From assembly GCA_934183255.1 (NCBI GenBank), contig CAKPSD010000001.1:321351-385350 (forward strand): 64,000 bases of DNA. Reading direction: 5' to 3'. A program made the position numbers and the translations under genes. Positions 47,051 to 51,603 of the stretch are shown piece after piece. The notes under the pieces are model-generated. The model saw only the letters and a program-made list of their open reading frames with translations. It had not been told where the DNA came from and searched no databases. Each line of letters begins with the position of its first letter. Position 1 is the stretch's first letter. The DNA is from an uncultured Bacilli bacterium. GTDB lineage: Bacteria > Bacillota_I > Bacilli_A > RFN20 > DUOF01.

Positions 47051-47782
47051 CTATACTATGGGATCTATTCTATAAACATTTAATGTTGCTACTACTGAAG
47101 TTACTTTACCACTAGTATCTTTTTTGTATTCTAAGTTACCTACTTTATAATACATTTTTCCTCCTACTACTGGAGTTGTAGCTGATTTCCAGTCCACTTT
47201 ACCTACATCTTCATATTCTATATGATCAACTTTAAAATATGAAGTGTAATTAGTAGCCCAATCTGCTGGTGCTGCAGTTAATAGTGTATAAACATAATTT
47301 CCTTCAACACCTGTTCTTGTATAGTATGTCCTTGTAGCAAATGCAGGAGCACTTTCTCCTGTTACTGATACATATACATTTTTAGGAGTAGCTATTATTT
47401 CTCCATAACTATGAGATATAAAATATGCTGTCCCTTTTTTCTCTCTTTCTAGATTCTTAACTGTTTGGTTTACACTACCATCATCATTGGCACCAAATGT
47501 TTGAGTAATATAATATTTACCATCATCAGATTTTTTCAGTGTATAAATAAAATAACCTACATCTATACTTCCATCCTCATTGTTAGTCGCATGTAAATAT
47601 GTTCCTTTATATTTATTCATTGCTGTAATAAGAGAATCTCCATCTCCTTTTACTGTTTTATAATCCGACTCTGAAGTTACTGATGAACTAGTAAATGTAT
47701 CTGGTTTCTTTGCATCTTTTCCACATCCAACTAATGATAGTGACATTAATGTAGCTAAGCTTAATAATCCTATTTTTTTCAT
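47051..47782 (-). CDS. lipoprotein, hypothetical
   Basis: MKKIGLLSLATLMSLSLVGCGKD lipobox with a GGAGG SD. The ORF-track 5' extension is unlikely. Confidence 0.55.
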   Translation of the reverse strand: MKKIGLLSLATLMSLSLVGCGKDAKKPDTFTSSSVTSESDYKTVKGDGDSLITAMNKYKGTYLHATNNEDGSIDVGYFIYTLKKSDDGKYYITQTFGANDDGSVNQTVKNLEREKKGTAYFISHSYGEIIATPKNVYVSVTGESAPAFATRTYYTRTGVEGNYVYTLLTAAPADWATNYTSYFKVDHIEYEDVGKVDWKSATTPVVGGKMYYKVGNLEYKKDTSGKVTSVVATLNVYRIDPIV

Positions 47783-47902
47783 AAATTTCCTCCATTCAAT
47801 ATTATTATTTTCTATATTTTGAAATTTATGAGTATAAAAAAACTTAATTACGTTTGCAGCCATAATTAAGTTTCTTTTTTATTTTAATTTTAACTATTTA
47901 TA

Positions 47903-49078
47903 TTAGTTATTGAATGTTAAAGTTTGTTGTGACATCATACCACAAGTTAAAGTAGTATCTAATGCAAATCTTCTTGCCCAGTTTGTTTGAGTAGTATATT
48001 TACTTGCATCTAATGTAGTAGCTTGTTCTTCAGTAATTACAGCACCTTTTGCTCCAACACCTTCAACTGTTTCATTTAATACTTTTCTAGTTTCCCAGTT
48101 ACCGTATGCAGCATTAATTAAAGCATAGTTATTAGCAGCATCAGCAGTTAATGCAACATTTTTAGCAGCTAATTTAGTATTCCAGAAAGATTCTCTGATA
48201 AATGGATATCTTCTACTAGGATCTCCTGAATATACAGCACATTTAGCATGACTCTTAGCATCTTCTTCTGTATTCCATTTTAATAAAGAATTTCCACTCA
48301 TTGAATCATAAGCAGCTGTAATAACGATTGATTCAGGAACAACATAATATACAGTTCCTCCACCATTAATAACTTTGTTAGCAAAAGCTAATTTTTTAGC
48401 ATCAGTATCCATAGCAGCCCATGTAGCAGCTTGAGAAGCTATTGTTGGAGAATAATGACTAAATACTTCTAATTTTTCAGCATCAGAACTAGATGCATTT
48501 AAAACATGTACTTTACCATTATATTGAATACCATATGAATGATAATAATCAGCTTCTGTAGCATATCCTGTTGGATAAGCACTATCAGTTGAATTTAATT
48601 GTCTTAGCCATGTTATACTAACATTTTGGTTAATAGCAAAGTCATTAACTTTGCCAGTTCCTCCTTCACCCATACCATATAGTTTGAATGAATTTGGATC
48701 TATTACTAATTCTACATTTGTATTAGCAACTTTTACTTCTGATTTTCCATTAACTTTAGTTGGTACAGCTGTAGCAATTGAGAACATAGAACGATAATTA
48801 TAACCTTTCTTTGTTCCATTAGGTAACAATAATTCATCACCTTTCAAGAATTCTCTAATTGTTTCTTTCTTTAATTCTTCTGTCCAAGCAAAAGCTCCCA
48901 TATTAATTCCTTTTCCTTGTTCTGTAGCAGATGTTGCCATATCCACTGTTTCAATCCAACCATGATCTCTTGCCCATTTAGCATATTCTTCTTCTGTTGG
49001 TTGTTTGTTACATCCTGCAACTCCTAGTACCATTAATGCTGCCAAAGAAGCAGCACCTACTTTTAAACCTTTTTTCAT
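47903..49078 (-). CDS. lipoprotein, hypothetical (391 aa)
   Basis: MKKGLKVGAASLAALMVLGVAGCNK lipobox. The signal peptide is paralogous to that of the gene at 50683. Confidence 0.6.
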   Translation of the reverse strand: MKKGLKVGAASLAALMVLGVAGCNKQPTEEEYAKWARDHGWIETVDMATSATEQGKGINMGAFAWTEELKKETIREFLKGDELLLPNGTKKGYNYRSMFSIATAVPTKVNGKSEVKVANTNVELVIDPNSFKLYGMGEGGTGKVNDFAINQNVSITWLRQLNSTDSAYPTGYATEADYYHSYGIQYNGKVHVLNASSSDAEKLEVFSHYSPTIASQAATWAAMDTDAKKLAFANKVINGGGTVYYVVPESIVITAAYDSMSGNSLLKWNTEEDAKSHAKCAVYSGDPSRRYPFIRESFWNTKLAAKNVALTADAANNYALINAAYGNWETRKVLNETVEGVGAKGAVITEEQATTLDASKYTTQTNWARRFALDTTLTCGMMSQQTLTFNN

Positions 49079-49208
49079 TAAAATTCCCCTTTCATCTTTT
49101 CTTACTTATATTTTACAATATTAAATATGAAATTCAATTTTTCTATATTGTTTTTTTATATTTTTTCAAAAAAAGGGATAATTTTTTTATTATCCCCACA
49201 AACTATTA

Positions 49209-49955: not shown

Positions 49956-49976
49956 ATTGTCTTTTTCCTTTCCTTT

Positions 49977-50618
49977 TTATTTTATTGGTGTTAATTCATC
50001 TAATATTCCAAAGTTAAATGTATATTTAACATCACCACATCCATTAACAAAGTATTTGTTAGTTGTAATGCTTTTATAACTTGGAATACCTTCTGAATTA
50101 ATTACTCCACCTACATTATAAAGCAAATTTCCATCATATCCAAGTTGTATAAGCAAATTTATCATATAACTTGATTCAGAACCTGCTTGTGATATTAAAA
50201 ATATATATTTATCTTTAGAAAATAATGATTTAACAATTCTTTCCGATTCTTCATATTGAGCAATAAAACCTCCAACTTGCCCTGCTGGTATGTTTTTACC
50301 TGTTGAATCAGTTGTTGCCTTCATTCTATACAAAGAGTCATATTCATTAAAAGAAGCTATAAATGATAAAAAAGGAATAAATTCGAAACCTGCTACATGT
50401 CCTTCTTTCATTATAGATGTTGAACTCCTTAGATCCACATATTGAACATTTTCCATGAACATATATTTATCTATATTTTTGGTATTAATAGGGCTTGTTA
50501 AAACAGAGGTATCATTTGCATTTTCTTTTATTGGTATAACAAGATTTTCTTCTTTTTTACAAGAACATCCTGTAATCAAAAGCATAATAAGTAAAAATAT
50601 AGTTATTCCTTTTTTCAT
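49977..50618 (-). CDS. lipoprotein with rhodanese-like domain (active-site Cys replaced)
   Basis: Lipobox LLITGCSCKK. Rhodanese-like blocks YVDLRSS...KYIFLISQAGSESSYMIN...YNVGG. Confidence 0.5.
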   Translation of the reverse strand: MKKGITIFLLIMLLITGCSCKKEENLVIPIKENANDTSVLTSPINTKNIDKYMFMENVQYVDLRSSTSIMKEGHVAGFEFIPFLSFIASFNEYDSLYRMKATTDSTGKNIPAGQVGGFIAQYEESERIVKSLFSKDKYIFLISQAGSESSYMINLLIQLGYDGNLLYNVGGVINSEGIPSYKSITTNKYFVNGCGDVKYTFNFGILDELTPIK

Positions 50619-50682
50619 ATAACTCTCCTTAAAAAAAATAGAAAGGTAATGCCTTTCTATTTTAAATACAAACATTAATTAA

Positions 50683-51603
50683 TTATTTAGATAAAGCATT
50701 TTTTACAGCTTTTAATACTCTATTTGATGATAATGAAGCACCTGTAGCTACATCTGTTCCACTTGCTGTGTTAGTTGCACCTAACATAGTGTTAATGTCT
50801 GCTAAAGTTTTTCCTTTTAAACCATTTAAGAAAGTATATTTAGCTTTTAACCAAGTTTCAGGATTCCATTCTCCTCCAGCTGTACCTGTAAATTCTTTAT
50901 TTCCAACTACGTATACATTTTCAATTTTTCCTTGTGCATCAACAACTACTTTAACATTTGCAGTATAAGTTGCTGTACCAATTGTTTCAGTATAAGTTCC
51001 TTCTTTATAAGTTACTTCAGCATCACTTAATGTTACAATATGATTTTTATAATTGTCATAGTTAGCATCTTTAACATAGTTATTATATCCACCTACATTA
51101 TAAACTTTTGACATATCCCATCCATATCTTTCTAAAATATTCATCATATGTACTACACGTCCACCACTTGCACATGATAAGAAAATTGTTTTATCTTTAG
51201 GGAAAATTTGCTCAAGTAAAGTTACTGAATAAGTATATTTAGGAGTGTAATCCTTATTGAATAATTGTTTTTCAGTAGTAGCACCACTGCTATAAATATC
51301 TTCAAAGAATTCAATATGTTCAAATCCTTTAAGTGCTCCACCAGATGATAATACTTCTTGGTATCCACGTAAATCAACATATTTAACATCACTTCTACCT
51401 AAATACTGATACAAGTTATGTACGTTAATTCCAGAGCATGAATTGCTGTAATCATTTGATAAGCATGCACTTCCATCTGTAGTTTCTGCAAGTCTTGCTA
51501 CAGGTAATTCAGGTAGTTTATCTTTTTTGCCACATCCTGTTACCCCACCGAATACTAATAATGCTGCTAAAGAAGCAGCTCCAATTTTAAGTCCTTTTTT
51601 CAT
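50683..51603 (-). CDS. lipoprotein with rhodanese domain (Cys present) and C-terminal FMN-binding-like domain
   Basis: Lipobox GVTGCGKK. Rhodanese loop LSCASGGR. C-terminal DVATGASLSSNRVLKAVKNAL. Confidence 0.5.
   Translation of the reverse strand: MKKGLKIGAASLAALLVFGGVTGCGKKDKLPELPVARLAETTDGSACLSNDYSNSCSGINVHNLYQYLGRSDVKYVDLRGYQEVLSSGGALKGFEHIEFFEDIYSSGATTEKQLFNKDYTPKYTYSVTLLEQIFPKDKTIFLSCASGGRVVHMMNILERYGWDMSKVYNVGGYNNYVKDANYDNYKNHIVTLSDAEVTYKEGTYTETIGTATYTANVKVVVDAQGKIENVYVVGNKEFTGTAGGEWNPETWLKAKYTFLNGLKGKTLADINTMLGATNTASGTDVATGASLSSNRVLKAVKNALSK

Follow-up and report, generated by a model that had tools for sequence, protein, structure and literature searches.

What do rhodanese-like domains and domains that bind flavin mononucleotide (FMN) do side by side on the lipoproteins of a single gene block? 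This question is raised by a stretch of 64,000 nucleotides from an uncultured Bacilli bacterium (contig CAKPSD010000001.1, positions 321,351 to 385,350 of the forward strand), which was analysed as a whole and is called the window in the following. Positions 47051-51603 of the window hold a run of five open reading frames (ORFs), all on the minus strand and each located at its annotated position. We name them P1 to P5 in the order of their coordinates (Table 1), such that P5 is the first and P1 the last in the direction of reading. The initial annotation described this block as five consecutive lipoprotein genes, two with FMN-binding and two with rhodanese-like domains, and related it both to Gram-positive extracellular electron transfer (EET) of the PplA type and to extracellular sulfur or thiosulfate chemistry.

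Three of the five genes carry the answer that we propose. P5 is a rhodanese fused to an FMN_bind domain, P4 a rhodanese-like paralog devoid of the catalytic Cys, and P3 a divergent FMN-binding domain of the RnfG/NqrC kind. As judged from sequence comparison, P5-P4-P3 represent, in this genome, an extracytoplasmic module that is conserved across species. With a probability of roughly 0.55, we take this module to be an extracytoplasmic, flavin-linked system for the redox chemistry of sulfane sulfur, similar to persulfide and polysulfide reductases.

Distribution of the module

One genome per species was scanned for relatives of P3. They were found in 115 genomes, and the best 80 loci of those were analysed; counts of loci given below refer to this set. 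The carriers, at least 115 species-level genomes, are host-associated anaerobes of gut and rumen and include Erysipelotrichaceae, Treponema, Clostridia, Christensenella, Oscillospiraceae, Peptoniphilaceae, and Synergistaceae. The P3 gene of the window itself is 98% identical to that of a human-gut metagenome-assembled genome designated 'uncultured Bacilli bacterium'.

In 79 of the 80 loci, the P3-type domain is accompanied by a rhodanese of the active type, i.e., with the loop CQSGGR or a near variant. The two are encoded by adjoining genes in 55 loci and fused in 24. Clostridia, for instance, have proteins of about 445 residues in which a P3-type domain is fused to a C-terminal active rhodanese. 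The sole locus without a rhodanese is a short contig, where the P3-type gene lies near the contig end. Since both domains adjoin or are fused in all loci but this one, with a Rosetta-stone fusion in 24 of them, a functional linkage between the P3-type domain and the rhodanese is indicated.

Further components are less constant. A P4-type gene for a Cys-less rhodanese is found in 42 loci, and a gene for the flavin transferase ApbE lies within the cluster in 31, the clusters showing at least three gene orders and occurring in Bacillota as well as in Spirochaetota. The canonical FMN_bind domain resides on the rhodanese in the lineage of the window; in Solobacterium and Treponema (20 loci) it is fused N-terminally to P3, and it is absent from the module in Holdemania and Dielma. 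Because this domain is mobile or absent among the loci, the predicted minimal unit consists of the P3-type domain and an active rhodanese. The pairing of flavinylation with rhodanese domains, which the initial annotation had pointed out as unusual, is thus strongly reinforced by the adjoining or fused genes and by the adjacent ApbE.

The same comparison narrows the block. Five consecutive lipoprotein genes are indeed present, but the conserved unit comprises three of them: the core P5-P4-P3 recurs in related metagenome contigs, while P2 and P1 join it only in this species.

In Solobacterium (L015-L017), a sulfite/nitrite reductase gene of the NIR_SIR type and a siroheme-synthase-like gene lie about 6 kb upstream (398-1909) of the cluster of ApbE, P4, P3, and rhodanese genes. 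These neighbours are sulfur-themed, but their position may be coincidental.

Composition of the core proteins

P5 had been read as a rhodanese with an intact CxxGGR loop, followed by a C-terminal FMN-binding domain, and both parts of this reading stand. The Pfam model FMN_bind (PF04205) matches P5 at 32.6 bits, above its gathering score of 22, and the C-terminal half of a profile built from 38 members of the P5 family matches FMN_bind/RnfG chains. With its N-terminal half, the same profile finds the solved rhodaneses 3foj (E 2.5e-4), 3iwh, PspE, 8w14, and 3r2u, the last of which is a metallo-beta-lactamase family protein carrying a rhodanese domain. It also finds the rhodanese domain of the persulfide reductase Npsr (6pfz). 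P5 has more than 150 homologs, and for many of them matches to PF00581 (Rhodanese) and PF04205 are recorded. For the rhodanese assignment, P5 by itself stays below the Pfam threshold, but homologs and family profile combined make a convincing case.

The active-site loop of P5 has the six-residue form C-X4-R, and its residues C144, G147, and R149 are invariant across the 38 family members. In most of the 80 loci the loop reads CQSGGR, where P5 has CASGGR. Of 78 active-type rhodaneses, 64 have an N-terminal Cys pair, which corresponds to the region of C47 and C56 in P5. The C-terminal sequence D284-V-A-T-G-A-S290 satisfies the ApbE motif D-x-x-[S/T]-G-A-[S/T] (PMC12052999). Its position is kept as TGAS or TGAT in orthologs, and some orthologs have the variant ASAT. 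The relatives P0004, P0007, and P0008 (L012:8001-9473) carry two tandem active rhodaneses, both with C-x-S-G-G-R, before the FMN_bind domain. Another locus (L046) encodes a protein of 754 residues composed of a P3 domain and two rhodaneses.

P3 had been assigned an FMN-binding motif at its C-terminus. The motif DAFSGAS is there, and in a family of 50 homologs S225 is at least 90% conserved, while V226 and S227 are invariant. The restriction to the C-terminus does not hold, since P3 has the RnfG/NqrC-type fold throughout. Matches to PF04205 are recorded for some P3 homologs, fusions among them, and most of the 80 homologs have a predicted flavin site of the form [ST]G[AS][ST].

A second conserved feature of P3 is the CxC pair. 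In the family, S103, T105, and R107 are invariant and C104 and C106 at least 90% conserved, and the pair is present in 77 of the 80 loci. One homolog (P0156), which has a long N-terminal extension (PF16378), has lost both cysteines and reads YLSDTSRT at this position. That they were lost together suggests that the two cysteines act as a unit.

P4 gives no direct match in Pfam, and a profile of its family finds nothing significant among PDB sequences, the best rhodanese being 1tq1 with an E value of 0.12. Its identity as a rhodanese is based on paralogy to the rhodanese module of P5. BLASTP aligns P4 with P5 at an E value of 2e-20, and hhalign aligns the P4 family (A3) with the active rhodanese family (A4) at a probability of 99.9% and an E value of 4.8e-37. 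The earlier description of P4 as a rhodanese-like protein with its Cys replaced is borne out by this paralogy and by the loop S-Q-A-G-S-E-S. At the position of the catalytic Cys, P4 has Gln, and 35 orthologs have Gln or Thr within a conserved loop S-[QT]-[AG]-G-[SV]-E, where G146 and E148 are invariant and S143 is at least 90% conserved. Because this conserved loop carries no Cys, P4 is predicted to be a conserved yet catalytically dead rhodanese and not a catalytic sulfurtransferase.

Lipoprotein and transcription signals

At its N-terminus, each of the five proteins of the block is first basic, then hydrophobic, and then carries a lipobox Cys; the G+LPP pattern matches every one of them, in full agreement with their annotation as lipoproteins. 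Among the 63 ORFs of at least 100 residues in the window, the pattern is matched by seven, five of which form the contiguous block P1-P5. From signal peptide and lipobox, P5, P4, and P3 are predicted to be lipoproteins anchored to the membrane on its outer side. The starts of P1 and P4 probably lie downstream of the earlier ORF limits, at 47782 (243 residues) and at 50618 (213 residues), as indicated by gene calls made independently on identical metagenome contigs and by the N-termini of orthologs.

Short intergenic gaps, a promoter-like site before P5 and a terminator-like hairpin after P3 suggest that P5-P4-P3 form one operon, the hairpin being its likely end. A search against Rfam revealed no riboswitch or other RNA inside the block, and its sole match in the whole window is one tRNA.

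P2 has a promoter-like site of its own. The near-identical signal sequences of P2 and P5 noticed initially (MKKGLK[VI]GAASLAAL) turned out to be part of a longer likeness, which runs on upstream into the promoter-like boxes. On the minus strand, the regions upstream of P2 (48990-49208) and of P5 (51515-51701) are homologous, with 77% identity over the alignment. The homology spans a -35 box TTGAAT, a -10 box TAAAAT, the leader GTAAAATATAAGyAAGAAAAG, which is identical in both, the ribosome-binding site and the signal peptide. This suggests that a cassette of promoter, leader, and signal peptide has apparently been duplicated onto an unrelated mature protein. As promoter-like boxes, 5' leader, and signal peptide are common to both genes, co-expression of P2 and P5 is suggested as well.

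Proposed function and alternatives

Like the initial annotation, we infer a sulfur or thiosulfate redox chemistry for the module. If P5, P4, and P3 reduce sulfane sulfur, an ApbE encoded elsewhere in the genome would attach FMN to Ser290 of P5 and to Ser225 of P3. Polysulfide, organic persulfides, or thiosulfate would donate sulfane sulfur to Cys144 of P5, which would hold it as a persulfide. The covalent flavins would then hand two electrons to the Cys144 persulfide, and sulfide would be released. The CxC pair of P3 would probably serve as a thiol/disulfide relay between flavin and persulfide, and P4 would probably pair with the active domain, like the inactive N-terminal domain of two-domain rhodaneses. 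The system would thus be an extracellular counterpart of the cytoplasmic persulfide reductases that combine flavin adenine dinucleotide (FAD) with a rhodanese (Npsr/CoADR-RHD). Of these, Npsr uses FAD, contains a rhodanese domain, and converts per- and polysulfide to H2S (PMC7969121).

A number of observations weigh against this reading, and they concern the electron supply first of all. The main weakness of a respiratory reductase is the absence of a linked membrane partner. Ndh2, EetA/B, Dmk, or other membrane electron-transfer genes were not found in the 64-kb window. When ORFs of at least 100 residues, up to about 6 kb away from the P3-type gene, were clustered over the 80 loci, no conserved membrane redox partner emerged. 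All that this clustering returned were artefacts of antisense ORFs, ABC ATPases of a generic kind, and regulators restricted to particular lineages. With no linked membrane component, the reductase model is left without an identified electron supply. For the same reason, the PplA-like EET proposed initially is not demonstrated, as neither the window nor the 80 loci have a linked Ndh2, EetA/B, or Dmk. Nor does any part of the window encode an ApbE; on this point our survey of genes and domains in the window agrees with the initial annotation, which had likewise found none.

Further points concern the domains themselves. Among the Pfam assignments by which the first reading was to be checked, FMN_bind on P5 exceeds its gathering score as stated above, while two others fall below theirs: Rhodanese (PF00581) on P5 reaches 19.4 bits (E 1.5e-3), just under the required 22.2, and FMN_bind on P3 reaches 15.4 bits against 22, i.e., well below, and covers the motif region only (residues 206-238). 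A Foldseek search of P3 against the PDB gave no significant match, and most P3 homologs have G-S-S instead of the canonical G-A-[ST]. Thiosulfate is, thermodynamically, hard to reduce for a flavin, and therefore the plausible substrates narrow to per- and polysulfide or compounds of the tetrathionate type. It is from sequence that flavinylation, the activity as a sulfurtransferase, and the direction in which electrons flow are predicted.

The direction of electron flow may be questioned in particular, for the parts list of flavin, Cys pair, and rhodanese fits equally well a surface system that oxidises sulfide or thiols. Such a system would resemble sulfide:quinone oxidoreductase (SQR), flavocytochrome c sulfide dehydrogenase, or a thiol oxidase of the Erv type. 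The CxC disulfide and the flavin would accept electrons, the rhodanese would remove sulfane sulfur, and an external or membrane acceptor would complete the path. The carriers do inhabit the sulfide-rich gut and rumen, and the missing electron donor matters less if the substrate itself donates. The difficulty is shifted to the other end, however, where no quinone-binding or cytochrome acceptor is linked either, and the hosts, as strict anaerobes, have few high-potential acceptors. We consider oxidation to be unlikely.

Quite improbable in our view is a role outside sulfur chemistry, be it that the rhodanese fold acts as a phosphatase, as a reductase of the arsenate/selenite type or as a module for binding or scaffolding, or that the proteins take part in flavin handling outside the cytoplasm or are generic electron wires to another acceptor. 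The rhodanese fold does include the Cdc25 phosphatases and the Acr2 arsenate reductases, and P4 is conserved without a Cys. Phosphatases and arsenate reductases, however, use a seven-residue CX5R loop, whereas the loop of the module (CQSGGR/CASGGR) is of the six-residue C-X4-R sulfurtransferase type and invariant in the family, and the best matches among solved structures are sulfurtransferase-type rhodaneses. What speaks for the electron wires is the example of FMN_bind lipoproteins such as PplA, which are generic electron conduits (PMC8238504).

Finally, a chance run of unrelated surface lipoproteins with coincidental motifs of the SGAS type would accord with several sub-threshold Pfam scores and with P1 and P2, which are not conserved beside the other three, but for P5, P4, and P3 it is effectively refuted: P3-type and rhodanese domains occur together or fused in 79 of 80 loci, ApbE is adjacent in 31, catalytic and motif residues are invariant, and P3 has an RnfG-like fold.

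The accompanying lipoproteins P2 and P1

P2, to which the initial annotation gave no domain, is read here as a putative PNPOx-like split-barrel lipoprotein. It belongs to a small family, with only 13 relatives among 5.8 billion clusters, and where homologs occur in other genomes, they do not adjoin the module. Weak matches to PNPOx_N are found in six of the 14 family members, and a canonical FMN_bind domain is fused to two. A profile of the family gave only spurious antibody matches among PDB sequences. Just past the lipid anchor, the family has a near-invariant S-A-T inside the motif D-x-x-[TAS]-S-A-T. In some P5 orthologs the ASAT variant sits at the bona fide flavinylation site of FMN_bind, and a change of Gly to Ala in the motif leaves about 50% flavinylation (PMC12052999). 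On these two grounds, P2 is put forward, speculatively, as a candidate new ApbE substrate, possibly with a substrate fold that is new as well, the PNPOx-like split barrel. Probably co-regulated with the module through the duplicated promoter, leader, and signal peptide, P2 may be a further carrier of flavin (or heme).

Two observations on this family are added. Right behind the lipid anchor, residues 29-41 of P2 (48956-48994) form the helix motif E-E-x-x-K-W-A-x-x-H-G-[WY], in which W35, A36, and G40 are near-invariant in the family. The motif is also found N-terminally on rhodanese lipoproteins of other species (P0027, P0036, P0047, L017:8993-9697) and may be a common docking or anchoring element. 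In the P2 homolog P0249 (L100:8001-9110), two copies of the SAT-type motif stand in tandem (D-A-V-S-A-A-T ... D-A-I-A-S-A-T), which recalls multi-flavinylated proteins.

P1 occurs only in loci of this species. An exhaustive HMMER search of 1.84 billion representatives retrieved only four proteins with E < 1e-10 and, besides them, short matches to Tyr/Thr-rich repeats, and profile searches yielded no domain or family match. With four relatives only and no recognisable domain, P1 is treated as an unrelated orphan.

Table 1. Features of the lipoprotein block in window coordinates
Feature	Position	Strand	Basis
P1, orphan lipoprotein, 243 residues, outside the conserved module	47051..47782	-	few relatives, no family match
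P2, lipoprotein with putative PNPOx-like split-barrel core, 391 residues, joins the module only in this species	47903..49078	-	
P2, candidate flavinylation-like motif D46-M-A-T-S-A-T52	48923..48943	-	S50, A51, T52 at least 90% conserved in family
Promoter-like site upstream of P2	49110..49137	-	TTGAAT-16-TAAAAT; homologous to P5 upstream region
Terminator-like hairpin directly past P3 stop codon	49174..49197	-	9-bp stem, then TTTTTTT
P3, lipoprotein, divergent RnfG/NqrC-like FMN-binding domain, 248 residues	49209..49955	-	
P3, predicted flavinylation motif D219-A-F-S-G-A-S225	49281..49301	-	weak Pfam match and conservation
P3, CxC pair S103-C104-T-C106-R107	49635..49649	-	family conservation
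P4, Cys-less rhodanese-like lipoprotein, 213 residues, loop S143-Q-A-G-S-E-S in place of CxxGxR	49977..50618	-	
P5, lipoprotein, catalytic-type rhodanese then canonical FMN_bind, 306 residues	50683..51603	-	Pfam, homologs, family profile
P5, C-terminal FMN_bind domain	50689..50961	-	Pfam PF04205, residues 215-305; PDB profile matches 8p2b, 3o6u, RnfG
P5, predicted flavinylation motif D284-V-A-T-G-A-S290 (FMN predicted on S290)	50734..50754	-	
P5, rhodanese module and N-terminal extension (LPxxR...C47...C56-S-G-I)	51034..51519	-	Pfam residues 63-178; family alignment A4
P5, active-site loop C144-A-S-G-G-R149	51157..51174	-	invariant residues in family alignment
P5, signal peptide and lipobox (MKKGLKIGAASLAALLVFGGVTG|C)	51532..51603	-	G+LPP pattern; near-identical to P2 signal peptide
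Promoter-like site upstream of P5	51638..51666	-	TTGAAT-17-TAAAAT; consensus match only

Other genes of the window

The window has a G+C content of about 25%. The aldehyde dehydrogenase gene upstream of the block (51702-53060) was considered as a further member of the module and rejected, as the adjacency is seen only in four closely related 'Bacilli' genomes and one metagenome relative. Just downstream of the block, an AAA_14/DUF4143 ATPase gene is located on the minus strand (45637-46887). It is present in the same-species contigs L001 and L003 and missing from the otherwise syntenic contig L002, and because of this absence we regard it as a strain-variable insertion.

Large ORFs without a Pfam match are found at 59341-62046 (minus strand, 901 residues), 55643-56668 (plus strand, 341 residues), and 7837-9855 (minus strand, 672 residues), the last directly after a gene of the ABC/FtsX type. 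At 33865-35076 on the minus strand lies an ORF of 403 residues, unusually long for ThyX, whose Thy1 (ThyX) domain is confined to the N-terminal half.

Relation to known systems

Flavinylated extracytosolic proteins serve many systems that are still uncharacterised (PMC8238504). In the survey of these proteins by Meheust et al. 2021 (PMC8238504), rhodaneses go unmentioned in the main text, as they do in its 2024 follow-up, and in the part of the survey supplement covered here they appear only as incidental, unrelated flanking genes. In the literature searched, no paper relevantly joins rhodaneses with flavinylation, flavinylated proteins, or ApbE. A sulfurtransferase is thus a partner of flavinylated proteins for which we found no description there. 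Should the module handle extracellular persulfide, polysulfide, or thiosulfate, it would constitute an unrecognised route in the sulfur and H2S metabolism of the gut.

More tentatively, and with less confidence than we place in the sulfane-sulfur chemistry as such, one may conceive of the P3-type flavoprotein, the active and the dead rhodanese, and a dedicated ApbE as a new, self-contained extracytoplasmic flavin-cysteine relay that reduces (or oxidises) sulfane sulfur and needs no dedicated membrane partner, with P2 perhaps recruited in this species as a second new kind of ApbE substrate, a split-barrel lipoprotein that would hold its flavin by an N-terminal D-x-x-T-S-A-T motif. If so, the relay would be a new terminal module for sulfur respiration, acquisition, or detoxification on the cell surface of anaerobes from gut and rumen. 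As the module is small, comprising two to four soluble-domain proteins, it is directly testable in vitro. For flavin tagging, moreover, the naturally varying flavinylation motifs (G-S-S, A-S-A-T) and the possible new substrate fold of P2 are of relevance.

By its kind, the module falls among the extracytosolic redox systems flavinylated by ApbE that were covered in the survey by Meheust et al. With RnfG, NqrC, PplA, and the clusters of that survey (PMC8238504) it shares the extracytoplasmic location, the FMN_bind/RnfG-like fold, the ApbE motif, and an often clustered ApbE, and with PplA also the anchoring of P5, P4, and P3 as lipoproteins. Unlike the surveyed clusters, its invariable partner is a rhodanese and not a membrane complex, reductase, cytochrome, or iron transporter. 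It differs from RnfG, NqrC, and PplA in that the P3-type domain is longer, contains the CxC pair and stays below the Pfam threshold, and in that no transmembrane electron-transfer component is linked to it. While PplA has tandem FMN_bind domains, P5 has a single one behind the rhodanese, and P3 a single divergent domain. Nor is the module a Gram-positive EET locus, which comprises Ndh2, EetA, EetB, DmkA/B, FmnA/B, and PplA: Ndh2, EetA/B, and Dmk are not linked to it.

P2 is set apart from PNPOx-like split barrels and from HugZ/HutZ by its location as a cell-surface lipoprotein, an additional helical C-terminal part, and the N-terminal D-x-x-[TAS]-S-A-T. The known PNPOx-like (FMN-binding) and HugZ/HutZ-type (heme-binding) members reside in the cytoplasm and hold their cofactor without a covalent bond.

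Among the rhodaneses, the module resembles two-domain enzymes such as bovine rhodanese and Azotobacter RhdA in its six-residue Cys/Arg loop and in the pairing of an active with a Cys-less domain, which here reside on separate lipoproteins. Its location is that of PspE and Wolinella Sud, which are extracytoplasmic single-domain rhodaneses. From these rhodaneses it is distinguished by the N-terminal extension with a Cys pair and by the association with a flavoprotein, which is obligatory in the module, and with ApbE as well.

The closest functional parallel is offered by Npsr/CoADR-RHD (6PFZ, PMC7969121), which likewise unites a flavin, redox cysteine(s), and the catalytic Cys of a rhodanese in one system. 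Npsr, however, is cytoplasmic, has the fold of a pyridine-nucleotide disulfide oxidoreductase with non-covalent FAD and bound coenzyme A, and draws its electrons from NAD(P)H. The FAD/NAD domains of such oxidoreductases were not found in P1-P5, where only the rhodanese part matches 6pfz. For the module, the prediction is a covalent FMN carried by an extracellular RnfG-like fold, and the flavin domains of both systems are unrelated. The resemblance to Npsr is one of function and not of membership.

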